A stretch of 64,000 nucleotides of DNA, taken from the NCBI RefSeq assembly GCF_036365525.1, contig NC_090411.1, positions 26,672,819-26,736,818 of the forward strand, read 5' to 3'. The DNA is from Heterodontus francisci. Its lineage: Eukaryota. The translations under genes were made by a program, and so were the position numbers. The notes under the pieces are model-generated. The model was not told where the DNA came from and made no database searches. It worked only from the letters and a program-made list of their open reading frames with translations. Positions within the stretch are counted from its first letter, which is position 1. Each line of letters starts with the position of its first letter. Positions 4,860 to 60,386 of the stretch are shown here, piece after piece.

Positions 4860-5080
4860 TTGTAAACCATGTAATACTTCTTTAAATACTAGCCATGGCC
4901 TGTCTGACATCAAATCTTTTAATGTATTTTCCCAATCCACCATAACTAACTGGCTCCTCATGCCATCATATTTACCTTTGTTCAGATTTAAGACCCTAGT
5001 TTCAGAATAAACTGTATCTCTTTCAAACTTCATGTAAGATTCTATCATATTGTTGTCACTATTTCCTTATGGCTTCTTTA
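4860..5080 (-). mobile_element. CR1 LINE internal fragment upstream of type A promoters (also ~31050-31190, ~56640-56780)
   Basis: ORF 4833..5048 resembles the CR1 post-endonuclease region (RVLNLNKGKYDGMRSQL..VDWE). Confidence 0.65.
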
Positions 5081-5254
5081 CAGCACTGCCATTTAAAAGT
5101 TAGGATAAGGAGTCCCTCAGAGTAACAAACTAATGTAACTTTTCAGACCTGCGTCAAGCTTGTTTTAGTACCTCCCCACAACTGCCAAAATGAGGTTCTG
5201 GCGTATGTTTTATTGCCATTTTTAACTGGAGGCCCTTTTCAAAGTTTGCACTTT

Positions 5255-5500
5255 TCAGGGAGGTCAAAGATCAAATAAGCTGTTACATCATGGTTGAATT
5301 GTCAATCAAAGAAGCCTTGCCTTTAACATTCTGATTGGCTCCTGGGTCCCAAATACAACCCTGTGTTGATTGGAATCCTTGGACATGGCAGTTGTTCAAT
5401 TGATTAACGAGTGGTTGATCATCATTGATGATGTCATTTCCTGGTTAATAAAATGGTGTTGGGGTCCTGGAGTATAAATTCAAGTCCTTTGACAGTGTAG
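5255..5500 (+). promoter_or_regulatory. Proximal promoter of ferritin copy 1
   Basis: TATAAA 5473-5478; inverted CCAAT/Y-box CTGATTGGCT 5331-5340 and TGATTGG 5367-5373; CRE-like TGATGTCA 5429-5436; DR1-like AGGTCAAAGATCA 5261-5273. The block is conserved upstream of all five copies. Confidence 0.65.
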
Positions 5501-5577
5501 TTTTAGGTAGTTGGTATTATTTGGAAATTTGTGATAGTTTTTTTTTGTTGGTGTAAATTGAAAGCTACATTCACAAA

Positions 5578-8555
<2,978 letters not shown>

Positions 8556-8679: not shown

Positions 8680-8685
8680 AATAAA
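8680..8685 (+). terminator. Polyadenylation signal, copy 1
   Basis: AATAAA ~125 nt after the stop, at a homologous position in all copies. Confidence 0.7.
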
Positions 8686-10357
8686 ACTGTCTTCAATTGA
8701 TACTGCCTATTGAGAATTTTGTACACTGCAGACAACTGATACTTACTTTAATACGGCAACTTGTCATTCACAGTAGTCTGACATCAAATTACTTGATTTG
8801 CTGGTTGACTTAGCTAGTTAAAATAGTGGTTAGACTATGAATCTTGCACTGGCTTTCTCTTTCAAAGTTTGGTTGGGTGGTGGAAGGTGACTGTGTTCCT
8901 GAGCTTCTTGCCAATGACTTCAACTGTGTACCTCTAGTGACTCCTGAGCTTAAATGGTCATGGATTGAAGTACTAGTCCTGTTTGGGGTGTGGCTGCAGA
9001 GAAGTGGGGAGAAAAATGCTTTTCCTGGCCTTGAAGCTACAAATGTAACTAAAGCATATGTTTTTCTCCTAACTAGCCTCAGACTCCAATGTCTCATCAG
9101 GTTGTACTTTTTACTGTAAAAGACATCCTTGCATTGCAATAGCCTTTGGAGAAAGGAAAGGATTAAGACCATCTGTTCCCATTTCATCTTTGGATGCTAT
9201 GTTCATCCACAGATTTAATCTGTTTCTTCCTTCAGATGGCTAGGAAGTTGAAGGAGGTGTTCCTCAACTTACAAATCCTTAATTTCTAAAGGTAAATTAT
9301 GCCTTGCAAACAAATGTGAACTGGCTGGTCTGGACAAATTCAGCTCCATGTCACAAAGCATCCTAAATTGGACATAATGCCATTCCTCCATTATTGGCCA
9401 AAGTTTTGGAACTCTCTACCAATATCCTCTAACTTGTGTTTGTGCATAGGCTTGTGGCAGTGTACTGTCCATTTTAAGATGGATGAGTATCTGAATGGTA
9501 TGCTGCTTGCGTGTGGCCTTTGTCTCTAGTACATTCCTGGTTGCTGCATTGCTTGGAGGGAACATTGTTTCCTACCTGACAGTGCTGAGTAACTTCACTA
9601 GACAGCAGCTTTGAGGCAGCTCACCACTGCCACCCTCTTGTGGGCAACTCGAGCTGGGCAATAAATGCTGGCCTTGCTTGTAATGCCTACATCCTTTTAC
9701 ATGAATGAGAAATCCCATTGCTCCAATTAGAGCAGTTTGTGAATTTAGAAGTAGCCAGTCTAATGTTCCTTGAAGTAAACGATTCAAATATTGAACTGAA
9801 TTGTCCCCTCCATATACTGGCTTGACTTTCTAGCTTGGATGGTCAATATCCTGCAACTCTTTGGCTTTCCCCATTTCTCAACTGTGTGCATGATCTCGTA
9901 AAGAGGTATCTCCTGTAATATCAATAGTCAATATGATCTTGAGCTAGTTTCATTTCATGAAAGGCTTAGAGCAATTTTCTAGGTTTCTCACCCCACCAAC
10001 ATTGTTTAGATTTTTATCTGGTTCCCTGCCTCCAGCCAGTGATTACACACTTCTGTGTGATGAAGTGTAGGTATCATAGGCTTAATTAGGTAGAATTTAG
10101 ATGTAACTAATGATGACTGTTAGAATTAATGATTGAATAAATGGTCAGTTTTCAAGACATACTGAAGTTCCCTTTAAGGGCATAGTTAAAAATCAATGAA
10201 TGTGTACCAGAACACCTGTGAGGTTTGAGAAAACCTTTCCAAGGTCTCTGCTATATTGGGAACACAGCAAGACAGGCTATATGTGGTCTGTACTGATAAC
10301 TATAATCCTAATTCATTGTTAATGATAGACAGACTGATTTAAGAAGATGGTACAAGG

Positions 10358-14425: not shown

Positions 14426-14769
14426 TGCATCCTGCTGCTGCTTTCAAGCAGGAAGGCCTCTGATTGGCCCTCCAGCTTCAACAACCCGCCTGCTGTCCTT
14501 AATTGAACGATGAGTCCATCCTCTGGCTATTAATTGGCCTTCCCAGGGAAAATCACAGTGAGTGACTGTTCCCCACACAGTGCAGGTTCAGAAGCCCGCA
14601 GAGAAATTCCAGCCTTAAAGGTGGACGCGAGCACAGTGAAGACTGATTCTGGCCTCAGCTGACGTCCACTCACACGTAGACATGTGTTCACAAGTACACA
14701 CACTAACACGTGCACACTCATACACGTGTGTGCACACAGGCGTGGCAGTGTTGATCCTCTCTCAGGCAT

Positions 14770-16065: not shown

Positions 16066-17024
16066 GAAATGGACCTTTAAGTTACTTGACGTGTTGTTTT
16101 GTCTCTCAAGTTAATCGATTTATTTTAAATTAGGTTATGCCGTCACTAAACTACAAGACAAAGGAAGATGTTCTTAGTGTAATATTGAACAGTATAATAT
16201 CCTAAACTGCAACCCGGTATTTGAAACAACTATTGAACAAAAGTAACTTGCTTCCACCAATCTGCCTTTGATCATGCCTTTTAACTGACTGGTTATCTTC
16301 AATTCTCCAGGACCATACAGACCACCAATCCACTGTTGAAGGCTGTTTTAGTTTGTTTTATGTCGAGTAGGAGGAGGCTCATGTGGAGCATAATTGCCAG
16401 CATGGACCAGTTGGGCCGAGTGGCCAGTTTTTGTGTTGTACATTGGATATAATTCTATGAAAACAGTATCAGAAACTAACTCATTGGAAACATTTTTGAC
16501 AGTAGATGATTGTTGATACAATTAAAGACTGAATATAGGGATAATACAATGGCAGGTACGTGATATGCATCCAGCAACTGATTCCTGGGGAAATTAGACA
16601 AGGGGGCCTGAGGCCTACCATGTAGCTGAGGTACTCAGCACTTTAGGGCATTGCTTTTCAAACTGGCCTCCCTGCAACCCAGGGAATCCTCAAGGTGATT
16701 GCAGGAGGTTCTGAATGGGTCACAACGTCATCAGATGTCAACCTGTCATCAGATACCTACATTGGTTGACCCACAAGCACATTATTTCTGTTGCTGAATA
16801 CTCATAGAAAAATGTTTTCTGCAAATGATGTCTCTATTTTCCAATGGTCTCCCAGCACTGCCATTTAAAAGTTAGGATAGGGAGTCCCTCAGAGTAACAA
16901 ACTAATGTAACTTTACAGATCTGTGTCAAGCTTGCCTTAAAATCTCCCCATAACTGACAAAATGAGGTTCTGGTGTATATTTTATTGCCATTTGTATGTC
17001 GGGGCACCTTTCAGCATTTGCACT

Positions 17025-17275
17025 TTTGAGGGAAGTCAAAGATCAAATCAGCTGTTACATCATGGTTGAATTGTCAATCAAAGGAATCTTGCCTTCAACA
17101 TTCTGATTGGCTCCTGGGTCCCAAATCCAACCCTGTGTTGATTGGAATCCTTGGCCATGGCAGCTGTTCAATTGATTAACGATTGGTCGGTCATCATTGA
17201 TGATGTCATTTCCTGCTTAATAAAATGGTGTTGGGGTCCTGGAGAATAAATTCAAGTCCTTTGATAGTGTAGTTT
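17025..17275 (+). promoter_or_regulatory. Proximal promoter of ferritin copy 2 (TATA changed to AATAAA)
   Basis: Homologous to the copy 1 promoter; AATAAA at 17245-17250 where type A has TATAAA. Confidence 0.55.
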
Positions 17276-17346
17276 TAGGTCTTTGGTGTTAATGTTAAAT
17301 TTGTGATAGTTTTTTGTTGGTGTAATTTAAAAACTAAATTCTCAAA

Positions 17347-22117
<4,771 letters not shown>

Positions 22118-22260: not shown

Positions 22261-23780
22261 ACTATCTTCAATTGATTTTTGTCTGTATGAAGTTATATAC
22301 TATCATGCAGACCACTGACACTACTTTTAAGATTTGGCAACTTGTAGCTCAGTCATTTGAAGTCCATTTATTTGCTGTTAACTAGCTGAGCCAACCAGCA
22401 AGTAACAATTGTGAATAGACTGAATCTTCAACTGGGTTCCCCTCCAACTGGGGGAAGGTGAAATTTTCTTGGGCTTTGACTTGCCAATGACTTCAGCTGT
22501 GCCTCTATCACATGTGGTGACACATAAACTCAAATCATCCTGAACAAATTGTTATGGGTTGAAGTACTAGACCCCTGGGGGAGTGGAGGGGAAGATGTTG
22601 AACAAGAATTACTATTCTAGGCCAAAGTGAAATGCTTTTTCTGGCCTTGGGAGGCTACAAATTCAAGGCAACAAGTTACTTTTGCCTTTCCCAGCCCTTC
22701 CTCCCATCGAACACCTCATCTCATTAGGTTGTTTTCTTGCTGTGCTGCAAGAATGTCTGTAAAATAACTTTTGGGGAAAGAAGGAACAAAACCATCTGTT
22801 CCCAGTTCCTCATTTGATGCCATCTTCATCTACAGATCTAAGTTGCTTTGTCAGATGGCTAGGAAGTTGAGTGTCTTCAAGTTATGACAGGTGTGTAGTT
22901 TAGAAGCTCAAGTCAAAACAAATTGACTTGAGCCAAAAGATGTGAGCTGGCTGGACCAAGTTCAGCTCTGTCTCAAACTATCTTGAATTGGACAGAAAGC
23001 CATTCCTCTATTGTTGCTGGGTCAAAGTCTTGGAATTCCTTACCAATGTCTTCAACTTCGATTTGCTGTGCATGGCAGTGCCGAGTCTGTTTTCAGGTGG
23101 ATATGCATGCATATATCTTAAAGGGTACGTTGCTTATGTAGAGCCTGTTGGTCCTTGTGTGGCACATTCCTGGTTGCTGTACTGCTTTGAAGGACCATTT
23201 ATCCCCACCTAACATTGTTCAGAAATCTCACTGGAGACAGTAGCAATTCAAGGCAGCTCACCACCACCCTGAAGGGCAACTCAGGCTGGGTAGTAAATGC
23301 CTGTTTTTAAAAAAAAAAATGAAATCACAGTTGCTATAAATACAGCAGTTTGTGAATTTAAACATAGCAAGCCTAATGTCCTGTAATCTAGTTTGAAGTA
23401 TTGAAATAAATTGTCCACTTTTCATTTAGTGGCTGCACTTTCCAAGTTTAAGAATGGTCAATGTCCTGCATTTCTTAGCTTTCCCCATCTTTCAACTGTG
23501 TACAGATTATCTTACACAGGAGGTAGCTTTCCTGTCATATAAGTCAATGATCTCTTCAGCTAGTTTCCATTGCCTGAAAGGCTCAGAGGAATTTTCTTTC
23601 TCCCCTTCATGGATTTTTATCTGGCGGTCTCTTGCAGGAGATTACATGGTTTCGGGTGGGTGCAGTGTCTGTATTAAGAGCCATGAGAGCACAACTGTAT
23701 GGAACAGGCTCAATTGATCGGTTGGTCTCTTCATGGGGACTGGTGAGCCAGACTCACTGACACAAATTAACTATTTATAT

Positions 23781-23916
23781 AATAAAAGCAAAATATTGCA
23801 GATGCAGGAAATCTGAAATAAAAACAAGAAATGCTGGAAATACTCAGCATATCTGGCAGCATCTGTGGAGAGCGAAGCAGAGTTAACATTTCAGGTCAGT
23901 GACCCTTCTTCAGAAC
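23781..23916 (-). mobile_element. Penelope-like element terminal fragment with hammerhead-like motif (paralog 49360-49490)
   Basis: ~14-bp TSD TTAACTATTTATAT/TTAACCACTTATAT; empty site at ~205-222; minus strand reads CTGAAGA-stem-GAAA. Confidence 0.65.
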
Positions 23917-24149
23917 TTAACCACTTATATCATGTGCTAAAGGGCACTTTTCCCCCAACGAGGAGAGAATATTCTAATTGAGACTGAGCCAGTGTTCTAT
24001 ACAAGTTTAACATAACTTCCTTGCTTCTGTACTCGATGAATGAACCCGAGAATGCTGGATGCTCTATTAACAGCTCTCTCAACCTGTCCTGCCACCTTTA
24101 ATGATTTATGCACATGTACACCCAGGTCCCTCTATATAATACAATATAG

Positions 24150-26165
24150 TGCAGAAGAGGCCCTTTAGCCCATCGAGACTGCACCGATGCATTAAAGATA
24201 CCTGACCTGTCTACCTAATCCCATTTGCCAAAACTTGGCCCATAGCCTTGAATGTTATGATGTGCCAAGTGCTCATCCAGGTGCTTTTTAAATGATGTGA
24301 GGCAACACGCCTCTACCACCCTCCCAGGCAGGGCATTCCAGACCGTCACCACCCTCTGGGTAAAAAAGTCCTTTCTCAAATCCCCCTTAAACCTCCCGCC
24401 CCTCACCTTAAAACTTGTGTCCCCTCGTAACTGACCCTTCAACTAAGGGGAACAGCTGCTCCCTATCCACCCTGTCCATGCCCCTCATAATCTTGTACAC
24501 CTCGATCAGGTCACCCCTCAGTCTTCTCTGCTCCAGCAAAAACAACCCAAGCCTATCCAACCTCTCTTCATAGCTTAAATGTTCCATCCCAGGCAACATC
24601 CTGGTGAATCGCCTCTGCACCCCCTCCAGTGCAATCACATTCTTCCGATAATGTGGCGACCAGAATTGCACACAGTACTCCAGCTGTGGCCTTACCAAAG
24701 TTCTGTACAACTCCAACATGACCTCCCTGCTTTTGTAATCTATTTGTATCCCTATTAACCTGCCCTTCTGCCTTCAGAGATCTATGGACAAACTCGCCAA
24801 GGTCCCTTTGTTCCTTGGAACTTCCCAGTGTCAGGCCATTTATTGAATACTTCCGTGTCACATTACTCCTTCCAAAGTGCATCACCTCACACTTTTCAGC
24901 GTTAAATTCCATCTGCCACTTTTCTGCCCATTTGACCATCCCGTCTATATCTTCCTATAACCCAAGACACTCCACCTCACTGTTAACTACTCGGCCAATC
25001 TTCGTGTCATCCGCGAACTTACTGATCCTACCCCCACATAGTCATCTATGTCGTTTATATAAATGACAAACAATAGGGGACCCAGCACAGATCCCTGTCG
25101 TCCGCCACTGGACACTGGCTTCCAGTCACTAAAACAGCCGTCTGTCATCACTCTCTGTCTCCTACAGCTAAGCCAATTTTGAATCCATCTTATCAAGTTA
25201 CCCTGTATCCCATGTGTATTTGCTTTCTTGATAAGTCTCCCATGTGGGACCTTGTCAAAGGCTTTGCTGAAATCCATGTAAACTACATCAACTGCACTGC
25301 CCTCATCGACACACACGGTCACATGCTCAAAAAATTCAATCAAATTTGTTAGGCATGACCTCCCTTTTGCAAAGCCATGCTGACTATTCCTAATCAAATT
25401 TTGCCTCTCCAAGTGGAGATAGATTCTCTCCTTCAGAATTTTCTCCAATAGTTTCCCAACCACTGACGTGAGACTCACTGGTCTGTAGTTCCCTGGCTTA
25501 TCTCTACAAACTTTCTTAAATAGTGGGACCACATTTGCTGTTTTCCAGTCCTCTGGCAGCTCCCCCGTGGCCAGAAAGAAATTAAAAATTAGGGTCAGAG
25601 CCCCTGCAATCTCCACCCTCGCCTCCCACAGCATCCTGGGACACAAATTGTCCGGACCTGGAGATTTGTCCACTTTTAAGCCTGCCAAAACCTCCAATAC
25701 CTTGTCACTCCCTATGACAATTTGCTCAAGAACCTCACAGTCTCTCTCTTTGAGTTCCATATCTACATCCACATTCTCTTGGGTGAAGACAGATGTGAAG
25801 TATTCATTCAACACCCTACCAATGTCCTCTGGCTCCACCAACAGATTTCCCCCTTGGTCCCTAATGGGTCCTACGCTTTCCCTTGTTATGCAATGTGGCT
25901 GTCCCTTTTTTATTTCTAAACTCCACCCATAAAGCTTCATTTGATGCCCCCTCCAAGGTATCATCTCTCCTTACTGCAGTAACTGACTCCTTAACTAATA
26001 TTTTACCCCTCCTCTGTCTCGCCTGAAGATTCTATATCCCGGGATATTGAGCTGCCAATCCTGCCCCTCCCTCAACCATGTCTCTTTCGGTGATGGCTAC
26101 TATATCACAATTCCACATGTCAATCCTTGCCCTTAACTCATATGTTTTACCTGTAATACTCCTGC
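24150..26165 (-). mobile_element. CR1 (HER1-like) LINE with internal deletion
   Basis: ORFs 24987..25964, 24568..24939, 24408..24719 and 24215..24442 tile CR1 ORF2 (RT) with frameshifts. Confidence 0.92.
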
Positions 26166-26179
26166 ACCCCCTTTAGAGT

Positions 26180-28680
26180 TGCACTCATTATTTTATGTTA
26201 TCTCTGCATTTATCCAACCAAAATGAATCACTTCACACTTTGCTGCATTACATTTCACCTGTCTCTTTTCCACCCGTTCCAACAACCTATCTATGTCCTT
26301 TTGGAGTTCTATACTGTCCTCCTCATAGTTCACAATGTTTCCAAGTTTTGTATCAAATGCCAATTTTGAAATTTTGCCCTGTACGGCAAGATCGGGGTTA
26401 TTAATACATATATCAGGTACAGCAGGGGTCCTAACATCGAACCTTGGGGAACTCCACTACAAACTTTCCTCCAGTCCGAAAAACATCCATTATCACTACT
26501 CTCTGTTTCCTATCACTCAGCCAATTTCATATCCATCTTGCTACTGTCCCTTTCATTCCATGAGCTAGAGCTTTGCTCACGAGTCTGGTTTTTGGCACTG
26601 TGTCAAATGATTTTTGGAAGTCCATGTATACCACATCAACAGCATTACCCTGATCAACCTTCTCTGTTACCTCATCAAAAACTCCAGCAAGTTGTTAAAC
26701 ACAATTTGCCCTTCACAAATTAGGCTTTCCATAATTAACCCACATTTGCCCAAGTGGCTATTAATTTTATCCCAAATTATAATTTCTAAAACCTTCCCAC
26801 CACTGAGGTTAAACTGACTGGCCTGTAGTTGCTGGGCTTATCTTTACAACCTTTTTTGAACAATGGTGTAACATTTCCAATTCTCCAGGCCCCTGGCACC
26901 ACCCCTGAATCTAAGGAAGACTGGAAAATTATGCCGCTGCAATTTCCACTCTCACTTCCTTCAGTATCCTTGGATGCATCTCATCTCGTCCTGCTGCCTT
27001 ATCAACTTTAAGTACCGCGAGCCTATCCAATACCTCTTCCTTATCAATTTTAAATCATTTAAGTGCCTGAATTACTTCCTCTTTCATCATGACCTGTGCA
27101 GCATCTTCTTCCTTGGTAAAGAGAGATGCAAAGTATTCCTTTCATACCTCAGCCATACCCCCTGCCTCCATGTGTAAATCCCTTTATTAGTCCCTAATTG
27201 GCCCCACTCCTCCTTTTACCACCCTTTTACTGTTAATGTTCCCATAGAAGACCTTTGGGTTCCCTTTATATTTTCTGCCAGTCCCTTCTCGTACTCTTTG
27301 TTGCTCTTATTTGCCTTTTCACTTCCCTTGTGAACTTTCGATATTCTGCTTGGTTCTCACCTGACATCTGTCATGGCATATTTTTTCGTCTTCATCTTTA
27401 TCTTTTTCATCAACCGGGGAGCTCTGGATTTGTTTGCACCACCTTTCCCCTTTGTGGGAATATACCTTGACTGTGCCCAAACTATCTCTTCTTGAAAGGC
27501 AGCTCATTGTTCAGTTACCATTCTGTCTGCCAATCTTTGATTCCAATTAATCTGGGTCAAATCCATTCTTAACCCAATTGAAGTTGGCATTCTCCCAATC
27601 CATTATTCTTACTCTGGATTGTTCTTTATCCTTTTTTGTAGCTAACCTAAATCTTATGATACAATGATCACTATTCCCTAAACGTTCGCCAACTGACACT
27701 TGATCCAATTGGCCCACCTCATTCCCAAGAATCAGGTCTAGCAGTGTCTCCTTTCTCATTAGACTGGAAACCATACTGCTGCAGAAAATTCTCCTGAACA
27801 CACTCAAGGAAATCTAGCCCTTCTTTTCCCTTTACATGACTACTATCCCAGTTTATATTCAGAGAATTAAAGTTCTCCATTATAACCACTCTATAATTCT
27901 TGCACTTCTCTGCAATGTCCTTCCAAATTTGCTCCTCTGCACCTTTGCTGCTATTTGATGGCCGATAAATTACACCCAGCAATGTAATTGCACTTTTTTT
28001 GTTCCTCAGCTCCAGCCGAATAGATTCGGTCCTTGACTCCTCTGGGTCATCCTTTCTCTCAGGCACTGCAATGTTCTCCTTCATCAAAACTGATACCCCT
28101 CCCCCTTTCCTTCCTTTCCTATCTTTCTTGAACACCTTATATCCAGGAATATTTAGTACCCAGTCCTGCCCTTCTTTGAGCCAGGTCTCTGTTATTGCCA
28201 CAACCTCATATTTCCATGTGGCTGGCTGTGCCTGCAGCTCGCCAACCTTATTTACACTCCGCGCATTCGCAAACAGTAAAGCCTAATTTAAATGTTATTA
28301 CTTCCCCTGTTCCTCTGACTCCATCTAATAAACTTGCTATTTCTTACTCTAGTGCAATCTGTATCTTTCAATTCTCTGTGCACCTTGGTGTTCCTCTGTT
28401 GTATTATCTCCTGGGTCCCACACCCCTGCCAAGTTAGTTTAAACCCTCCCAAATAGCACTAGCAAATCGCTCCGCATGGATCCTGTCCCAGCTCTGTTCA
28501 ACTTGCCTGGCCTCTAAAGGTCCCATCTTCTCCAGATCTTGTCCCAGTGTCACAAGAATCTAATGCCTTCCCTCCTGCACCATCTTTCCAGTCATGCATT
28601 CATCTGGTCTATTCTCTATTTCTATACTCACTTGCACTTGGTACCAGGAATAATCCAGAGATTACTACTTTAACTACCAG
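26180..28680 (-). mobile_element. Old decayed CR1 LINE including the AP-endonuclease region
   Basis: ORF 27719..28201 AITETWL..DR..RKGGGV..GVIYRP..; homologous to 10955-13570 and 2485-4440. Confidence 0.88.
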
Positions 28681-31364
28681 AGACTACTACTCCTCCTGGC
28701 TGGCCTCCCATATTCTAGGAGGTCATCCAGAACTCCAGTGCCCTTGTCCTCAATCACACCAAGTCCTATTCACCCATCATGCCTATCATCGCTGACCCAC
28801 ATTAACCTCCTGGTTAACCAAAGCCGCTATTTCAAATTCTCACCCTTCTTTTCAAATCCTTCATATGGCCTCGCCCATCCCTATCTCTGCAATCCATCCG
28901 GCCCCACAGCCCTCGAAATATCTGCACTCCTTTAATTTTGGCCTTTGAGCATTTACAATTTTAATTGCTCCACCATTGCCAGCCGTACCTTCAGAAATTT
29001 CATCCTTAAACATCCTCACCTCTTTACCTCTCTCTCTCTATTCCTTGAAGATACTCCTTAAAATCCAGCGGTTTGATCAAGCTTTTGTCACCTCCATTTA
29101 GAATCATCCTCTCCTTCACTTACCTTCCGCTGCATCAAAATCATGAGGGTTCTGGACAGAGTAGATAGGAAGAAACTGTTCCCACTCGTGAAAGGATGAT
29201 GAAAGGGAGGGCATAGATTTCAGGTAATTGGGAAAAGAAAATAAGGTGAGGTCAAGGTTTGGAAAGAACTGCCTGAGAGTGTGGTGGAGGCAGGTTCAAT
29301 CGAGGCTTTCAAAAGGGAATTAGACTGTTATATGAAAAGGAAGAACGCGCAGGGTTACGGGGAGAAGGCGGGGGAATGGCATTAGGTGACATGCTGATTC
29401 GGCGAGCCGGTGCAGACACAATGGGCCGAATGGCCTCCTTTGATGTTGGAACAGTTCTATGATTCTGTGATTCTGCATCCTGTTGCTGCTTTCAAGCTGG
29501 GATATGCCCATAGAAGACGTTTGGATTCCCTTTTATATTTGCAGCCAGTCTCTCCAGCTTCGATTACCACCCCACTGTCCTCAATTGAACGATGAGTCCA
29601 TCCTCTGGCTATCAATTGGCCACCCCAGGGAAAATCACAGTGAGTGACTGTTCCCCACACAGTACGGGTTCAGAAGCCAGCAGGGAAATTCCAGCCCTAA
29701 AGGTGGAGGCGAGCACAGTGAAGTCTAATTCTGTCCTCAGCCCATATCCACTCACACGTACACACGTGTTCACAAATACACACACGAACATATGCACACT
29801 CATACATGTGTGTGCACACAGGGGTAGCAGTGTGGATCGTCTCAGGCATTAGATCTCATTCTCTATTCAAAGAAGAGCAGGGAATTTTCCTTCAGCTTAC
29901 ATCACTAAAACAGACTATCTGGTGGTCATTATCATATTGCAGTTTGTGGGAGCTTGCTGTGCACATATTAGCTACCGAATTTCCTACATTACAACAGTGA
30001 CTACATTTCAAAAGTACTTCATTAGCTGCAACGTGCTTTGGGACTTTCAGAGTTCTTCCTTTCGAGTTCTGCGACAGTCGTCTGTCTGGAAGACACAAGG
30101 GCCGGGATTTTCAATTGCCGGTTGGGTGGGGAATGAATGTGGACGCAATTTGAAAACCGTCACCTCTGAAACGCGGGACGGTGGGAAGGGGCAACGGGAA
30201 ACCTTTTCGCCGACAATTAACAGCCCATTAACCTCCTTGAGGAGCTTGTTAACGGGACTGGGAGCGTGAGGAAGCAATTTTTAAAAGTTAGAGCGCCGAA
30301 CTTAAACAGTCTGGTGCAGGTTATTGCACAGTCGTCGGGTCCAACGTGGGCAAAGGTGAAAATTCTTTTATTGGTGATGACAAATTTCGGGAGCTGGGGG
30401 ATTTTCGCTGGATCCTGCACTTTACCTTCCATTTGGCCATTTGGCCACTTTTCAGAGCAACAATATTCTCTGAACCAAGATTAAAAAACTCTTCTTTGAA
30501 TTGACACCGACCTGAACTACATTTGGTTGCAGTTTGCGTTCAATGCCAGCTACTGTAAAAACACAGAAAAATGGTGGCTTGGAAATAACAGTGCAATATT
30601 ATTGGTAAACACTTTAATTTATTCTTGAGATGTGAGACTCACTGGCAAGGCCAGCATTTATTGCCCATCTCCAACTGGTCATGAGAAGGAGCTGGTGGGA
30701 CTTGTTCTTGAACCGCTATAGTCCATGCGCTGAAGATGCTCCCATAGTGTTGGTCGGAAGGGAGTTCCATGATTTTGACCCGGTGACGATGAGGGAGCGG
30801 TGATATATGTCCAAGTCAGAATGGTGTGTGGCTCAGAGGGGAACTTGGAGGTGGTGGCGTTCCCATACACCTGCTTCCTTTGTCCTTCGGGCTGGTGGAG
30901 GTCACATGCTAGGGAGGGGCTGTCGGAGTAGCCTTGGGGAGTTGCTGCAGTGTATCCTGTAGATAGTGCACACAGCAGCCCCAGTGGAAATGGACCTTTC
31001 AGCTACCTGACATGTTGTTTTGTCTCTTAAGTTAATTGCACCAATTCACCATAACCAACTTGCCTCTCATGCCCTCATATTTACCTTTGTTCAGATTTAA
31101 GACCTTAGTTTCAGAATAAACTGTATCTCTTTCAAACTTCATGTAGAATTCTATCATATTGTTGTCACTATTTCCCAATGGCTCCTTTACTGCGCTGCCA
31201 TTTAAATGTTAGGATAAGGAGTCCCTCAGAGTAACAAACTAATGTAACTTTACAGATCTGCATCAAGCTTGTCTTCATATCTCCCCACAACTGCCAAAAT
31301 GAGGTTCTGCTGTATATTTTATTGTCATTTTTAACTCGAGGCCTGTTCAAAGTTCGTACTTTTC

Positions 31365-31610
31365 AGGGAGGTCAAAGATCAAATAAGCTGTTACATTCTG
31401 GTTGAATTGTCAATTAAAGGAGCCTTACCATCAACATTCTGATTGGCTCCTGGGTCCCAAATCCGACCCTGTGTTGATTGGAATCCTTGGACATGGCAGC
31501 TGTTCAATTGATTAACGAGTGGTCGGTCATCATTGATGATGTCATTTCCTGGTTAATAAAATGGTGTTGGGGTCCTGGACTATAAATTCAAGTCCTTTGA
31601 CAGTGTAGTT
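31365..31610 (+). promoter_or_regulatory. Proximal promoter of ferritin copy 3
   Basis: TATAAA 31581-31586; two ATTGG boxes, DR1-like and CRE-like motifs conserved. Confidence 0.6.
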
Positions 31611-31676
31611 TTATGTAGTTGGTGTTAATTTGTGATAGTTTTTTTGTTGGTGTAAATTGAAAGCTACATTTACAAA

Positions 31677-34808
<3,132 letters not shown>

Positions 34809-43147: not shown

Positions 43148-43395
43148 GAGGGAAGTCAAAGATCAAATAAGCTGTTACATCATGGTTGAATTGTCAATCA
43201 AAGGAATCTTGCCTTCAACATTCTGATTGGCTCCTGGGTCCCAAATCCAACCCTGTGTTGATTGGAATCCTTGGCCATGGCAGCTGTTCAATTGATTAAC
43301 GATTGGTCGGTCATCATTGATGATGTCATTTCCTGCTTAATAAAATGGTGTTGGGGTCCTGCAGAATAAATTCAAGTCCTTTGATAGTGTAGTTT
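43148..43395 (+). promoter_or_regulatory. Proximal promoter of ferritin copy 4 (TATA changed to AATAAA)
   Basis: Homologous block; AATAAA at 43365-43370. Confidence 0.55.
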
Positions 43396-43466
43396 TCGAT
43401 CTTTGGTGTTAATGTTAAATTTGTGATAGTTTTTTGTTGGTGTAATTTTAAAACTAAATTCTCAAA

Positions 43467-47691
<4,225 letters not shown>

Positions 47692-47830: not shown

Positions 47831-49729
47831 ACTATCTTCAATTGATATTTGTCTGAAGTTATATACTATCATGCAGACCACTGACACTACTTTTAAAATT
47901 TGGCAACTTGTAGCTCAGTCATTTGAAGTCCATTTATTTGCTGTTAACTAGCTGAGCCAACCAGCAAGTAACAATTGTGAATAGACTGAATCTTCAACTG
48001 GGTTCCCCTCCAATTGGGGAAAGGTGAAAGTTTCTTGGGCTTTGACTTGCCAATGACTTCAGCTGTGCCTCTATCACATGTGGTGACACATAAACTCAAA
48101 TCATCCTGAACCAATTGTTATGGGTTGAAGTACTAGACCCCTGGGGGAGTGGAGGGGAAGATGTTGAACAAGAATTACTATTCTAGGCCAAAGTGAAATG
48201 CTTTTTCTGGCCTGGGGAGGCTACAAATTCAAGGCAACAAGTTACTTTTGCCTTTCCCAGCCTTTCCTCCCATCGAACACCTCATCTCATTAGGTTGTTT
48301 TCTTGCTGTGCTGCAAGAATGTCTGTAAAATAACTTTTGGGGAAAGAAGGAACAAAACCATCTGTTCCCAGTTCCTCATTTGATGCCATCTTCATCTACA
48401 GATCTAAGTTGCTTTGTCAGATGGCTAGGAAGTTAAGTGTCTTCAAGTTATGACAGGTGTGTACTTTAGAAGCTCAAGTCAAAGCAAATTGACTTGAGCC
48501 AAAACATGTGAGCTGGCTGGACCAAGTTCAGCTCTGTCTCAAACTATCTTGAATTGGACAGAAAGCTATTCCTCTATTGTTGCTGGGTCAAAGTCTTGGA
48601 AGTCTTCAACTTCGATTTGCTGTGCATGACAGTGCCGAGTCTGTTTTCAGTTGGATATGCATGCATATATCTTAAAGGGTACGTTGCTTATGCAGAGCCT
48701 GTTGGTCCTTGTGTGGCACATTCCTGGTTGCTGCACTGCTTTGAAGGACCATTTATCCCCACCTAACATTGTTCAGAAATCTCACTGGAGACAGTAGCAA
48801 TTCAAGGCAGCTCACCACCACCCTCAAGGGCAACTCGGGCTGGGTCGTAAATGCCTGTTTTTTTTTTTTACATTTTATTTAAAAAAAAATGAAATCACAG
48901 TTGCAATAAATACAGCAGTTTGTGAATTTAAACATAGCAAGCCTAATGTCCTGTAATCTAATTTGAAGTATTGAAATAAATTGTCCACTTTTCATTTAGT
49001 GGCTGCACTTTCTAAGTTGAAGAATGGTCAATGTCCTGCATTTCTTAGCTTTCCCCATCTTTCAACTGTGTACAGATTATCTTATACAGGAGGTGGCTTT
49101 CCTGTAATATAAGTCAATGATCTCTTCAGCTAGTTTCCATTGCCTGAAAGGCTCAGAGAGGAATTTTCTTTCTCTCCTTCATGGATTTTTATCTGGCGGT
49201 CTCTTGCCTCTTGCAGGAGATTACATGGTTTTGGGTGGGTGTAGTGTCTGTATTAAGAGCCATGAGAGCACAACTGTTTGGAACAGGCTCAATTGATCAG
49301 TTGGTCTCTTCATGGGTACTGGTGAGCCAGACTCACTGACACAAATTAACCATTTATATAATAAAAGCAAAATATTGCAGATGCAGGAAATCTGAAATAA
49401 AAACAAGAAATGCTGGAAATACTCAGCATATCGGGCAGCATCTGTGGAGAGAAGCAGAGTTAACATTTCAGGTCAGTGACCCTTCAGAACTTAACCACTT
49501 ATATCATGTGCTAAAAGGCACTTTTCCCCCAACGAGGAGAGAATATTCTAATTGAGACTGAGCCAGTGTTCTATACAAGTTTAACATAACTTTCTTGCTT
49601 CTGTACTCTATGACCCTATGAATGAACCCGAGAATGCTGTATGCTCTATTAACAGCTCTCTCAACCTGTCCTGCCACCTTTAATGATTTATGCACATATA
49701 CACCCAGGTCCCTCTATATAATACAATAT

Positions 49730-51755
49730 CGTGCAGAAGAGGCCCTTTAGCCCATTGAGACTGCACCGATGCATTAAAGACACCTGACCTGTCTACCTAA
49801 TCCCATTTGCCAAAACTTGGCCCATAGCCTTGAATGTTATGACGTGCCAAGTGCTCATCCAGGTGCTTTTTAAATGATGTGAGGCAACCCGCCTCTACCA
49901 CCCTCCCAGGCAGGGCATTCCAGACCGTCACCACCCTCTGGGTAAAAAAGTCCTTTCTCAAATCCCCCTTAAACCTCCCGCCCCTCACCTTAAAACTTGT
50001 GTCCCCTCGTAACTGACCCTTCAACTAAGGGGAACAGCTGCTCCCTATCCACCCTGTCCATGCCCCTCATAATCTTGTACACCTCGATCAGGTCACCCCT
50101 CAGTCTTCTCTGCTCCAGCAAAAACAACCCAAGCCTCTCCAACCTCTCTTCATAGCTTAAATGTTCCATCCCAGGCAACATCCTGGTGAATCGCCTCTGC
50201 ACCCCCTCCAGTGCAATCACATCCTTCCTCTAATGTGGTGACCAGAATTGCACACACTACTCCAGCTGTGGCCTTACCAAAGTTCTGTACAACTCCAACA
50301 TGATCTCCCTGCTTTTATAATCTATTTGTATCCCTATTAACCTGCCCTTCTGCCTTCAGAGGTCTATGGACAAACACGCCAAGGTCCCTTTGTTCCTCGG
50401 AACTTCCCAGTGTCAGGCCATTTATTGAATATTTCCGTGTCACATTACTCCTTCCAAAGTGCATCACCTCACACTTTTCAGCGTTAAATTCCATCTGCCA
50501 CTTTTCTGCCCATTTGACCATCCCGTCTATATCTTCCTATAACCCAAGACACTCCACCTCACTGTTAACTACTCGGCCAATCTTCGTGTCATCCGCGAAC
50601 TTACTGATCCTACCCCCACATAGTCATCTATGTCGTTTATATAAATGACAAACAATAGGGGACCCAGCACAGACCCCTGTCGTACGCCACTGGACACTGG
50701 CTTCCAGTCACTAAAACAGCCGTCTGTCATCACTCTCTGTCTCCTACAGCTAAGCCAATTTTGAATCCATCTTATCAAGTTACCCTGTATCCCATGTGTA
50801 TTTTCTTTCTTGATAAGTCTCCCATGTGGGACCTTGTCAAAGGCTTTGCTGAAATCCATGTAAACTACATCAACTGCACTGCCCTCATCGACACACACGG
50901 TCACATGCTCAAAAAATTCAATCGGCATGACCTCCCTCTTGCAAAGCCATGCTGACTATTCCTAATCAAATTTTGCCTCTCCAAGTGGAGATAGATTCTC
51001 TCCTTCAGAATTTTCTCCAATAGTTTCCCAACCACTGACGTGAGACTCACTCGTCTGTAGTTCCCTGGCTTACCTCTACAAACTTTCTTAAATAGTGGGA
51101 CCACATTAGCTGTTCTCCAGTCCTCTGGCACTTCCCCCGTGGCCAGAAAGAAATTAAAAATTAGGGTCAGAGCCCCTGCAATCTCCACCCTCGCCTCCCA
51201 CAGCATCCTGGGACACAAATCGTCCGGACCTGGAGATTTGTCCACTTTTAAGCCTGCCAAAACCTCCAATACCTTGTCACTCCCTATGACAATTTGCTCA
51301 AGAACCTCACAGTCTCTCTCTTTGAGTTCCATATCTACATCCACATTCTCTTGGGTGAAGACAGATGTGAAGTATTCATTCAACACCCTACCAATGTCCT
51401 CTGGCTCCACCCACAGATTTCCCCCTTGGTCCCTAATGGGTCCTACGCTTTCCCTTGTTATGCAATGTGGCTGTCCCTTTTTTATTTCTAAACTCCACCC
51501 ATAAAGCTTCATTTGATGCCCCTCCAAGGTATCATCTCTCCTTACTGCAGTAACCGACTCCTTAACTAATATTGTAATGACCCCTCCTCTTTTACCCCTC
51601 CTCTGTCTCGCCTGAAGATTCTATATCCCGGGATATTGAGCTTCCAATCCTGCCCCTACCTCAACCATGTCTCTCTCGGTGATGGCTACTATATCACAAT
51701 TCCACGTGTCAATCCTTGCCCTTAACTCATCTGCTTTACCTGTAATACTCCTGCA
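49730..51755 (-). mobile_element. CR1 LINE (duplicate of 24150-26165)
   Basis: ORFs 50901..51527, 50569..50928 and 49990..50220. Confidence 0.9.
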
Positions 51756-51769
51756 CCCCCTTTAGAGTT

Positions 51770-54270
51770 GCACTCATTATTTTATGTTATCTCTGCATTT
51801 ATCCAACCAAAATGAATCACTTCACACTTTGCTGCATTACATTTCATCTGTCTCTTGTCCACCCGTTCCAACAACCTATCTATGTCCTTTTGGAGTTCTA
51901 TACTGTCCTCCTCATAGTTCACAATGTTTCCAAGTCTTGTATCAAATGCCAATTTTGAAATTTTGCCCTGTACGGCAAGATCGGGGTTATTAATACATAT
52001 ATCAGGTACAGCAGGGGTCCTAACATCGAACCTTGGGGAACTCCACTACAAACTTTCCTCCAGTCCGAAAAACATCCATTATCACTACTCTCTGTTTCCT
52101 ATCACTCAGCCAATTTCATATCCATGTTGCTACTGTCCCTTTCATTCCATGAGCTAGAGCTTTGCTCACGAGTCTGGTTTTTGGCACTTTATCAAATGAT
52201 TTTTGGAAGTCCATGTACACCACATCAACAGCATTACCCTGATCAACCTTCTCTGTTACCTCATCAAAAACTCCAGCAAGTTGTTAAACACAATTTGCCC
52301 TTCACAAATTAGGCTTTCCATAATTAACCCACATTTGCCCAAGTGGCTATTAATTTTATCCCAAATTATAATTTCTAAAACCTTCCCACCACTGAGGTTA
52401 AACTGACTGGCCTGTAGTTGCTGGGCTTATCTTTACAACCTTTTTTGAACAATGGTGTAACATTTGCAATTCTCCAGGCCCCTGGCACCACCCCTGAATC
52501 TAAGAAAGACTGGAAAATTATGCCGCTGCAATTTCCACTCTTACTTCCTTCAGTATCCTTGGATGCATCTCATCTCGTCCTGCTGCCTTATCAACTTTAA
52601 GTACCGCGAGCCTATCCAATACCTCTTCCTTATCAATTTTAAATCATTTAAGTGCCTGAATTACTTCCTCTTTCATCATGACCTGTGCAGCATCTTCTTC
52701 CTTGGTAAAGAGAGATGCAAAGTATTCCTTTAATACCTCAGCCATACCCCCTGCCTCCATGTGTAAATCCCTTTATTAGTCCCTAATTGGCCCCACTCCT
52801 CCTTTTACCACCCTTTTACTGTTAATGTTCCCATAGAAGACCTTTGGGTTCCCTTTATATTTTCTGCCAGTCTCTTCGCGTACTCTTTGTTGCTCTTATT
52901 TGCCTTTTCACTTCCCTTGTGAACTTTCGATATTCTGCCTGGTTCTCACCTGACATCTGTCATGGCATATTTTTTCGTCTTCATCTTTATCTTTTTCATC
53001 AACCGGGGAGCTCTGGATTTGTTTGCCCCACCTTTCCCCTTTGTGGGAATATACCTTGACTGTGCCCAAACTATCTCTTCTTGAAAGGCAGCCCATTGTT
53101 CAGTTACCATTCTGTCTGCCAATCTTTGATTCCAATTAATCTGGGTCAAATCCATTCTTAACCCAATTGAAGTTGGCATTCTCCCAATCCATTATTCTTA
53201 CTCTGGATTGTTCTTTATCCTTTTCTGTAGCTAACCTAAATCTTATGATACAATGATCACTATTCCCTAAACGTTCGCCAACTGACACTTGATCCAATTG
53301 GCCCACCTCATTCCCAAGAATCAGGTCTAGCAGTGTCTCCTTTCTCATTAGACTGGAAACCATACTGCTGCAGAAAATTCTCCTGAACACACTTAAGGAA
53401 CTCTAGCCCTTCTTTTCCCTTTACATGACTACTATCCCAGTTTATATTCAGAGAATTAAAGTTCTCCATTATAACCACTCTATAATTCTTGCACTTCTCT
53501 GCAATGTCCTTCCAAATTTGCTCCTCTACACCTTTGCTGCTATTTGATGGCCGATAAATTACACCCAGCAATGTAATTGCACTTTTTTTGTTCCTCAGCT
53601 CCAGCCGAATAGATTCGGTCCTTGACTCCTCTGGGTCATCCTTTCTCTCAGGCACTGCAATGTTCTCCTTCATCAAAACTGATACCCCTCCCCCTTTCCT
53701 TCCTTTCCTATCTTTCCTGAACACCTTATATCTAGGAATATTTAGTACCCAGTCCTGCCCTTCTTTGAGCCAGGTCTCTGTTATTGCCACAACCTCATAT
53801 TTCCATGTGGCTGGCTGTGCCTGCAGCTCGCCAACCTTATTTACACTCCGCGCATTCGCAAACAGTAAAGCCTAATTTAAATGTTATTACTTCCCCTGTT
53901 CCTCTGACTCCATCTAATAAACTTGCTATTTCTTACTCTAGTGCAATCTGTATCTTTCAATTCTCTGTGCACCTTGGTGTTCCTCTGTTGTATCATCTCC
54001 TGGGTCCCACACCCCTGCCAAGTTAGTTTAAACCCTCCCAAATAGCACTAGCAAATCGCTCCGCATGGATCCTGTCCCAGCTCTGTTCTACTTGCCTGGC
54101 CTCTAAAGGTCCCATCTTCTCCAGATCTTGTCCCAGTGTCACAAGAATCTAATGCCTTCTCTCCTGCACCATCTTTCCAGTCATGCATTCATCTGGTCTA
54201 TTCTCTATTTCTATACTCACTTGCACTTGGTACCAGGAATAATCCAGAGATTACTACTTTAACTACCAGA
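51770..54270 (-). mobile_element. Old decayed CR1 LINE (duplicate of 26180-28680)
   Basis: ORF 53308..53790 carries AP-endonuclease motifs. Confidence 0.88.
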
Positions 54271-56954
54271 GACTGCTACTCCTCCTGGCTGGCCTCCCAT
54301 ATTCTAGGAGGTCATCCAGAACTCCAGTGCCCTTGTCCTCAATCACACCAAGTCCTATTCACCCATCATGCCTATCATCGCTGACCCACATTAACCTCCT
54401 GGTTAACCAAAGCCGCTATTTCAAATTCTCACCCTTCTTTTCAAATCCTTCATATGGCCTCACCCATCCCTATCTCTGCAATCTATCCGGCCCCACAGCC
54501 CTCGAAATATCTGCACTCCTTTAATTTTGGCCTTTGAGCATTTACAATTTTAATTGCTCCACCATTGCCAGCCGTACCTTCAGGAATTTCATCCTTAAAC
54601 ATCCTCACCTCTTTACCTCTCTCTCTCTATTCCTTTAAGATACTCCTTAAAATCCAGCGGTTTGATCAAGCTTTTGTCACCTCCATTTAGAATCATCCTC
54701 TCCTTCACTTACCTTCCGCTGCATCAAAATCATGAGGGTTCTGGACAGAGTAGATAGGAAGAAACTGTTCCCACTCGTGAAAGGATGATGAACGGGAGGG
54801 CATAGATTTCAGGTAATTGGTAAAAGAAAATAAGGTGAGGTCAAGGTTTGGAAAGAACTGCCTGAGAGTGTGGTGGAGGCAGGTTCAATCGAGGCTTTCA
54901 AAAGGGAATTGGACTGTTATATGAAAAGGAAGAACGCGCAGGGTTACGGGGAGAAGGCGGGGGAATGGCATTAGGTGACATGCTGATTCAGTGAGCCGGT
55001 GCAGACACAATGGGCCGAATGGCCTCCTTTGATGTTGGAACAGTTCTATGATTCTGTGATTCTGCATCCTGTTGCTGCTTTCAAGCTGGGATATGCCCAT
55101 AGAAGACGTTTGGATTCCCTTTTATATTTGCAGCCAGTCTCTCCAGCTTCGATTACCACCCCACTGTCCTCAATTGAACGATGAGTCCATCCTCTGGCTA
55201 TCAATTGGCCGCCCCAGGGAAAATCACAGTGAGTGACTGTTCCCCACACAGTACGGGTTCAGAAGCCAGCAGGGAAATTCCAGCCTTAAAGGTGGAGGCG
55301 AGCACAGTGAAGTCTAATTCTGTCCTCAGCCCATATCCACTCACACGTACACACGTGTTCACAAATACACACACGAACATATGCACACTCATACATGTGT
55401 GTGCACACAGGGGTAGCAGTGTGGATCGTCTCAGGCATTAGATCTCATTCTCTATTCAAAGAAGAGCAGGGAATTTTCCTTCAGCTTACATCACTAAAAC
55501 AGACTATCTGGTGGTCATTATCATATTGCAGTTTGTGGGAGCTTGCTGTGCACATATTAGCTACCGAATTTCCTACATTACAACAGTGACTACATTTCAA
55601 AAGTACTTCATTAGCTGCAACGTGCTTTGGGACTTTCAGAGTTCTTCCTTTCGAGTTCTGCGACAGTCGTCTGTCTGGAAGACACAAGGGCCGGGATTTT
55701 CAATTGCCGGTTGGGTGGGGAATGAATGTGGACGCAATTTGAAAACCATCACCTCTGAAACGCGGGACGGTGGGAGGGGGCAACGGGAAACCTTTTCGCC
55801 GACAATTAACAGCCCATTAACCTCCTTGAGGAGCTTGTTAACGGGACTGGGAGCGCGAGGAAGCAATTTTTAAAGGTTAGAGCGCCGAACTCAAACAGTC
55901 TGGTGCAGGTTATTGCACAGTCGTCGGGTCCAACGTGGGCAAAGGTGAAAATTCTTTTATTGGTGATGACAAATTTCGGGAGCTGGGGGATTTTCGCTGG
56001 ATCCTGCACGTTACCTTCCATTTGGCCGTTTGGCCACTTTTCAGAGCAACAATATTCTCTGAACCAAGATTAAAAAACTCTTCTTTGAATTGACACCGAC
56101 CTGAACTACATTTGGTTGCAGTTTGCGTTCAATGCCAGCTACTGTAAAAACACAGAAAAATGGTGGCTTGGAAATAACAGTGCAATATTATTGGTAAACA
56201 CTTTAATTTATTCTTGAGATGTGAGACTCACTGGCAAGGCCAGCATTTATTGCCCATCTCCAACTGGTCATGAGAAGGAGCTGGTGGGACTTGTTCTTGA
56301 ACCGCTTTAGTCCATGCGCTGAAGATGCTCCCATAGTGTTGGTCGGAAGGGAGTTCCATGATTTTGACCCGGTGACGATGAGGGAATGGTGATATATGTC
56401 CAAGTCAGAATGGTGTGTGGCTCAGAGGGGAACTTGGAGGTGGTGGCGTTCCCATACACCTGCTTCCTTTGTCCTTCGGGCTGGTGGAGGTCACATGCTA
56501 GGGAGGGGCTGTCGGAGTAGCCTTGGGGAGTTGCTGCAGTGTATCCTGTAGATAGTGCACACGGCAGCCCCAATGGAAATGGACCTTTCAGCTACCTGAC
56601 ATGTTGTTTTGTCTCTTAAGTTAATTGCACCAATCCACCATAACCAACTTGCCTCTCATGCCCTCATATTTACCTTTGTTCAGATTTAAGACCTTAGTTT
56701 CAGAATAAACTGTATCTCTTTCAAACTTCATGTAGAATTCTATCATATTGTTGTCACTATTTCCCAATGGCTCCTTTACTGCGCTGCCATTTAAATGTTA
56801 GGATAAGGAGTCCCTCAGAGTAACAAACTAATGTAACTTTACAGATCTGCATCAAGCTTGTCTTCATATCTCCCCACAACTGCCAAAATGAGGTTCTGCT
56901 GTATATTTTATTGTCATTTTTAACTCGAGGCCTGTTCAAAGTTTGTACTTTTCA

Positions 56955-57170
56955 GGGAGGTCAAAGATCAAATAAGCTGTTACATTATGGTTGAATTGTC
57001 AATTAAAGGAGCCTTACCTTCAACATTCTGATTGGCTCCTGGGTCCCAAATCCAACCCTGTGTTGATTGGAATCCTTGGACATGGCAGCTGATTAACGAT
57101 GTCATTTCCTGGTTAATAAAATGGTGTTGGGGTCCTGGAGTATAAATTCAAGTCCTTTGACAGTGTAGTT
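56955..57170 (+). promoter_or_regulatory. Proximal promoter of ferritin copy 5 (two small deletions)
   Basis: TATAAA 57141-57146; 8 bp and 21 bp deletions relative to copy 3 at ~57090-57100. Confidence 0.6.
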
Positions 57171-57236
57171 TTATGTAGTTGGTGTTAATTTGTGATAGTT
57201 TTTTTGTTGGTGTAAATTGAAAGCTACATTTACAAA

Positions 57237-60386
<3,150 letters not shown>

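Follow-up and report, generated by a model that had tools for sequence, protein, structure and literature searches.

Five tandem Lys62 ferritin genes of an expanded shark array lack an iron-responsive element in Heterodontus francisci

The DNA analysed here (the window) is a stretch of 64,000 nucleotides of Heterodontus francisci contig NC_090411.1. It contains five ferritin genes arranged in tandem on the same strand, with gene starts spaced 11-15 kb apart (Table 1). Each copy consists of exons of 102, 147, 126 and 156 nt separated by GT-AG introns, has an open frame of 176 aa and is followed downstream by AATAAA. Both the ferritin-domain protein (relatives carry PF00210) and the layout of four exons and three introns are those of vertebrate cytosolic ferritin genes. 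Coding identity among the copies is 96-98%, and the mean pN/pS over the 10 pairs of copies is 0.18, so the ferritin proteins are under purifying selection.

Introns 2 and 3 of copy 1 were bridged exactly at GT..AG by one contig of sequencing run X2 (short sides of 46 and 128 letters); this run represents a relative, with 8 other letters in the 128 at exon 3, and the RNA nature of the sequencing runs is a guess. The same two joints were found in run X1, with short sides of 22 and 24 letters that fall under the bridging threshold. The bin 5252-5472 was uncovered in all four runs, and the exon 3 bin was covered in X1 and uncovered in X3 and X4; as contigs prove presence only, we draw no conclusion from these gaps on the start site or on tissue specificity.

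Two further observations concern the architecture of the window. A 9.5-kb block is found at both 22300-31780 and 47866-57340 with 97.5% identity and a period of ~25.6 kb, which suggests that a unit of two genes was duplicated recently (copies 2-3 and copies 4-5). Nested long inverted repeats at 546-2221, with arms of 211 and 315 nt matching at 86-89%, are probably two opposed repeat elements.

Table 1. Features of the ferritin array, in positions of the window; the first exon listed for each copy begins with its ATG.
Feature	Position	Strand	Details
Upstream module (promoter and leader), copy 1	5051..5577	+	common to the five copies; blastn, alignment
Inverted CCAAT box 1	5334..5338	-	invariant in 5 copies
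Inverted CCAAT box 2	5369..5373	-	invariant in 5 copies; 35 nt from box 1
E-box-like CANNTG (putative)	5389..5394	.	CAGTTG in copy 1, CAGCTG in copies 2-5
CRE-like TGATGTCA (putative)	5429..5436	+	present in copies 1-4; changed in copy 5, next to a deletion
TATA element TATAAAT, copy 1	5473..5479	+	also at 31581 and 57141
IRE look-alike, copy 1	5487..5503	+	C 5487, TTTGA, CAGTGT 5493-5498, AGTTT; 0/5 stem pairs, 0.8 bits
Inferred 5' leader, copy 1	5505..5577	+	73 nt (32 T, 16 G, 4 C); lacks an IRE and an upstream ATG
Ferritin copy 1, CDS	5578-5679, 6792-6938, 7501-7626, 8400-8555	+	176 aa, GT-AG, Lys62
Poly(A) signal AATAAA, copy 1	8680..8685	+	
Ferritin copy 2	17245..22117	+	AATAAAT at 17245; TAGTGT 17265; IRE-less leader; exons 17347-17448, 17913-18059, 18749-18874, 21962-22117
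Ferritin copy 3	31581..34808	+	TATA; CAGTGT 31601; IRE-less leader; exons 31677-31778, 32914-33060, 33712-33837, 34653-34808
Ferritin copy 4	43365..47691	+	AATAAAT at 43365; TAGTGT 43385; IRE-less leader; exons 43467-43568, 44036-44182, 44872-44997, 47536-47691; Asp27
Ferritin copy 5	57141..60386	+	TATA; CAGTGT 57161; IRE-less leader; exons 57237-57338, 58475-58621, 59272-59397, 60231-60386

All five genes share an upstream module of ~500 bp, whose counterparts in copies 2-5 begin near 16826, 31023-31160, 42973 and 56612-56749. The 230 nt preceding the TATA element are 94% identical between copies, versus 89-92% in intron and 3'UTR samples. This segment includes two inverted CCAAT boxes, putative NF-Y sites, together with putative E-box-like and CRE-like elements. 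In copies 2 and 4 the TATA element is weakened to AATAAAT, a feature absent from the initial annotation of this DNA; the same two copies have a third ATTGG at TATA-63 and a 4-codon upstream ORF (upstream ATG) within the inferred leader. Transcription is assumed to start ~30 nt past TATA, near 5502-5505 in copy 1, in keeping with the usual TATA spacing. The leaders thus delimited (TATA+32 to ATG) are 64-73 nt long in the five copies, with 41-47% T, 3-5 C and invariant U/G blocks, in agreement with the earlier description of a U/G-rich leader, whereas the C fraction was 0.24-0.46 in the leaders of all seven vertebrate-type controls. A basking shark protein (P0019) has an N-terminal extension loosely like one reading frame of the U/G-rich leader of the window genes.

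A 5' iron-responsive element (IRE) counts as a defining trait of cytosolic ferritin genes in vertebrates (PMC4117605). The initial annotation had claimed that none of the five leaders contains a functional IRE, and this was borne out by Rfam, a SIREs-rule scan and our own covariance model. Rfam, in which the IRE is RF00037, gave no match at gathering score in the 64 kb window, and at E<=10 there was no IRE family among the 11 matches in the window or the 4 matches in 5380-5680. As a positive control, 20 fetched ferritin loci were scanned likewise, and IRE_I was detected in the four that are fish-like, with scores of 46-53 bits. In the SIREs-rule scan, for which stem rules were taken from PMC2896125, the + strand of the window has 29 instances of the canonical motif, and none of them passed; 13 of 23 control leaders did, and all seven vertebrate-type controls passed. 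A loop-independent search for C-bulge stems between TATA and ATG+30 found none in any of the five copies. Three stems with arbitrary loops in the leaders were dismissed because their bulge position is occupied by G and their loops are non-canonical.

The covariance model, R1, was built from 10 IREs of fetched ferritin mRNAs. Its best score in the window was 11.4 bits (E 0.47, minus strand), while 11 of 16 other loci scored 16-41 bits, some of them being near-identical to training rows. Control loci giving no match number 16/20 for Rfam and 5/16 for R1, and may or may not carry an IRE. The positive-control loci, gathered in a search for shark leader DNA, came from metagenome contigs (34) and genome contigs (6). 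None of them was shark-like; for the first 34, the closest blastn matches to exons of copy 1 had ~68-88% identity. One candidate, at 14475-14510, had the two arms of an IRE separated by an insert of 19 nt (E 3.5); it is upstream of copy 2 only and absent in copies 3-5, and was considered a chance match. Taken together, an IRE is absent from the five ferritin copies of this one species, a result in which we have high confidence.

Several observations made among the control and related sequences are recorded here in their own right. Peptides of the type encoded by an IRE were present in the N-terminal extensions of five mammalian models and one lungfish model and in none of the four shark or ray models listed, a comparison that is uninformative; in the lungfish protein (P0016) the extension includes, near the start codon, a peptide of the kind that an IRE stem-loop would encode. 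Six control loci (L035-L040) are animal ferritin cDNA-like contigs inside six bacterial genome assemblies, three of them with intact IREs, and one shark-like ferritin (P0012) is filed under Aeromonas veronii. All of these look like contamination.

The initial annotation had drawn attention to a single IRE-like hexamer close behind the TATA box, CAGTGT in copies 1, 3 and 5 and TAGTGT in copies 2 and 4, with flanks that cannot pair. We found the hexamer as described, starting 20 nt after the first base of TATA and 13 nt after its end. The IRE loop consensus CAGWGH is present in three of the five copies (1, 3 and 5), and a C five nt 5' of the loop in all five (C5487 and equivalents). On the other hand, the 5-bp upper stem, in which SIREs tolerates no more than a single mismatch or a single 3' bulge, is missing, as none of the five positions pairs in any copy. 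The flanks within 5488-5503, TTTGA and AGTTT, are mirror images and not complements. The site folds at -0.5 to -5.5 kcal/mol in a different register, versus -7.8 and -10.5 for the controls. The look-alike spans TATA+14 to +30, and because the usual TATA spacing puts the start near 5502-5505, CAGTGT is probably upstream of the transcription start and outside the mRNA.

It had also been proposed that CAGTGT is an IRE vestige. In that case, the site would be a decayed ancestral IRE, either overrun by a promoter and cap site that shifted downstream or decayed in place. It agrees with a fish IRE core at 10/12 positions, and its C is correctly spaced. Among 20000 dinucleotide shuffles 225 reached this level, as did 13 among 1152 other tiles of 110 nt (~0.011), a significance test that was post hoc. 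However, 14 positions on the + strand have at least 10/12, some of them preceding the ATG by ~250 nt in copies 2, 4 and 5, and a better match (11/12) occurs at 8918-8929, past the poly(A) signal of copy 1. Over the full IRE 14-16 of 36 positions agree, with no match in the 3' stem arm, and model R1 gave the site 0.8 bits. Moreover, the IRE begins 181-272 nt before the CDS in four fish controls, compared with ~100 nt here. The vestige idea is therefore suggestive at most and was not established; with the site probably preceding the start, we regard it as doubtful. CAGTGT would instead be core-promoter sequence of, at most, remote IRE ancestry.

An IRE might still reach the mRNA from an upstream non-coding exon or an alternative promoter, spliced in before the ATG, so that iron control is kept. 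Such an exon, which the initial annotation had named as the counter-case, was not found in the window: the + strand has no IRE, including all DNA between consecutive copies for copies 2-5 and 5.5 kb of upstream sequence for copy 1. Possible acceptors are conserved, namely a YAG at TATA+22 (TTTGA-YAG; CAG or TAG), kept in all five copies, and a second AG at TATA+57/64. But every AG between TATA and ATG has 7-10 pyrimidines in the preceding 17 nt, as against 11-16 for all 15 true acceptors, and the one at TATA+22 is preceded by another AG at 11 nt, as against at least 24 for true acceptors. It also speaks against an upstream exon that conservation of the promoter-like module exceeds that of the intron samples, and that the sequence farther upstream is a mosaic repeated elsewhere in the window. 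Among the joints listed, none led from upstream into exon 1, and the exon 1-2 joint in run X1 is likewise absent there. We consider retention of iron control by this route very improbable. In copy 1, the YAG at 5493-5495 within the hexamer doubles as a weak splice acceptor.

Since any IRE-like stem is absent, loss of control by iron regulatory proteins (IRPs) is predicted for these genes; an mRNA that lacks an IRE escapes the translational block imposed by IRP1/2 when iron is low (PMC11719527). In the mechanism that we propose, transcription would proceed from the shared module and start ~30 nt past TATA, giving a short, C-poor and U/G-rich leader that IRP1/2 could not bind. A tissue-specific promoter and the number of genes, and not cytosolic iron, would then determine the output.

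Translation could still be controlled after loss of the IRE, by oocyte RNA-binding proteins acting on the U/G-rich leader or the 3' UTR, the mRNA being stored maternally and released during development. Presumably, such binders would be of the CELF, ELAV or DAZL type. The T content, C-poverty and invariant U/G blocks of the five leaders are what this model expects, and transcripts of a ferritin subunit are reported to predominate in a library made from salmon ovary at primary growth (PMC2262088). However, leader identity between copies is 90%, not above the 89-92% of intron samples, and thus indicates no extra constraint. Such regulation, which we think unlikely, is compatible with the IRP-independent mechanism and would modify it.

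At the protein level, the five genes share a change at one ferroxidase position. We take the ferroxidase sites to be E27, Y34, E61, E62, H65, E107 and Q141 (H-chain numbering, anchored on horse H, P0139). All five copies have K62 in place of Glu, encoded in exon 2 (e.g. 6792-6938), and copy 4 also has D27; the remaining sites are kept, so that the set of residues is not that of a ferroxidase-active H/M chain. In human FTHL17, Glu62Lys abolishes ferroxidase activity (PMC7760355).

We reconstructed a phylogenetic tree of 78 rows comprising the 5 window proteins, 68 of 165 proteins and 5 IRE-bearing loci; the 68 proteins were hand-picked to span taxa, fused models were excluded, and the tree contains no L chain and no FTHL17. 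The window proteins were nearest to Heterodontus proteins, inside a clade of 21 rows (100/99) from Heptranchias, Heterodontus, Scyliorhinus, Mustelus, Cetorhinus, Carcharodon, Stegostoma, Hemiscyllium and Chiloscyllium, which in turn is nested in a chondrichthyan clade of 49 rows (98/86). Lys is found at position 62 in every one of the 21 rows, whereas the other 57 have 1 Lys, 2 Asn and otherwise Glu. Within this sampling, with 120 of 1558 matches listed, the Lys62 clade has no ray or chimaera row. Its sister, 28 rows with mostly Glu62, is multi-copy too, and the equal lengths of the carrying sequences suggest that the Lys62 and Glu62 branches are on one chromosome in several species. Many shark genomes contain relatives, which at 90% identity form clusters reaching 43-180 members, and exon 2 of the window genes matches shark multi-copy ferritins at 82-88%. 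The tandem copies of the window are thus nested among multi-copy shark ferritins: the five genes are members of the expanded shark ferritin array, belong to its Lys62 branch, and have mRNAs without an IRE.

The expansion itself has been described. In the Greenland shark, 104 and 118 ferritin copies are reported from one cluster that is conserved in the great white shark and ovary-specific (bioRxiv 10.1101/2024.09.09.611499), in an animal of another shark order and with Lys62 and Glu62 branches not separated. Like the window genes, these are tandem, full-length and highly similar copies. The preprint labels them FTL and FTH1; here, we find a Lys62 branch and a Glu62 sister, both apart from the H rows. 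Its main text contains no occurrence of IRE, iron or UTR, and ferritin does not occur in a second Greenland shark preprint.

Comparison with vertebrate ferritin H and M genes (RF00037) reveals the same layout of 4 exons and 3 introns and the same protein family (PMC4117605). The window genes differ from them in having no IRE, a short C-poor leader and Lys62. All five salmon H and M isoforms are reported to keep their IREs (PMC4117605). FTMT is a vertebrate ferritin outside IRE/IRP regulation (PMC7760355), but it is mitochondrial, ferroxidase-active and intronless, whereas the window genes have no N-terminal extension, carry Lys62 and are multi-copy.

FTHL17 is intronless. The window genes, unlike it, have three introns and group with shark proteins; they have Glu62Lys in common with FTHL17 and mouse Fthl17, a likeness that we attribute to convergence. 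In the FTHL17 family, Glu62Lys is reported together with lack of ferroxidase activity, germ-cell expression and six copies in mouse (PMC7760355). The yolk ferritin of the snails Biomphalaria and Lymnaea lacks a 5' IRE as well and is linked to egg provisioning, but has a signal peptide and a 42-aa insertion (PMC10799875). By alignment, the window chains, at 176 aa, match H/M chains over their full length with no extension or insertion. In parallel with FTHL17 and snail yolk ferritin, the window genes probably provide subunits without ferroxidase activity, probably in the oocyte.

IRE-less ferritins (FTMT and snail yolk ferritin) and the shark ferritin expansion are therefore already known. For the IRE loss and Lys62 state of this expansion, we found no report in a literature search that covered mostly papers available without subscription and the main text of the preprint.

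The last claim of the initial annotation was that translation is uncoupled from IRP and iron control, consistent with tissue-specific or developmental expression. The first part agrees with the absence of any IRE-like stem; the second draws on the preprint on other sharks and on clade membership, by which tissue-specific expression of the window genes is supported by analogy. In teleosts, ferritin mRNA is reported to be abundant in ovarian follicles (PMC1488847, PMC2262088). The cell type behind an ovary signal in sharks is ambiguous because the lymphomyeloid epigonal organ surrounds the ovary (PMC5568229). The array could accordingly serve immune or epigonal cells, in which an IRE-free ferritin would be transcriptionally induced for iron withholding, and fish ferritins are known to respond to infection (PMC4117605). 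Against this, the preprint calls the cluster ovary-specific (10.1101/2024.09.09.611499), and the infection-responsive salmon ferritins retain their IREs in 5 of 5 cases (PMC4117605). An immune role of this kind appears improbable to us. The epigonal organ is present in males too, which also counts against it.

We consider it reasonably probable, taking the whole together, that these genes contribute to an IRP-independent, dosage-amplified and iron-independent ferritin stockpile of the oocyte, with Lys62 chains as L-like partners of Glu62 chains. Growing oocytes would make cytosolic ferritin shells before iron arrives, which could act as an iron sink and as a reserve for the embryo. In their behaviour, Lys62 subunits would resemble L chains and form mixed shells with the Glu62 subunits from the expanded sister branch.

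Published work presents the expansion in sharks as large, ancient and ovary-specific but explains neither its regulation nor its catalysis (10.1101/2024.09.09.611499, as far as its main text goes). IRE loss and Lys62 together offer an explanation, in which iron-independent and dosage-driven L-like subunits would serve egg provisioning. They also call for caution, as ferritin copy number in sharks should not be equated with extra iron-inducible, ferroxidase-based protection. A wider proposal, which we put forward tentatively and which may well prove wrong, is that sharks independently built an egg ferritin system from dozens to hundreds of intron-containing copies that were freed from IRP control early in the history of sharks, and that catalytic Glu62 and L-like Lys62 branches assemble together in the oocyte, either to store iron or as a bulk protein of the egg. 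If true, this would be a natural, clade-wide case in vertebrates of iron regulation being traded for gene dosage, and it would represent convergence on both the mammalian H/L division of labour and snail yolk ferritin.
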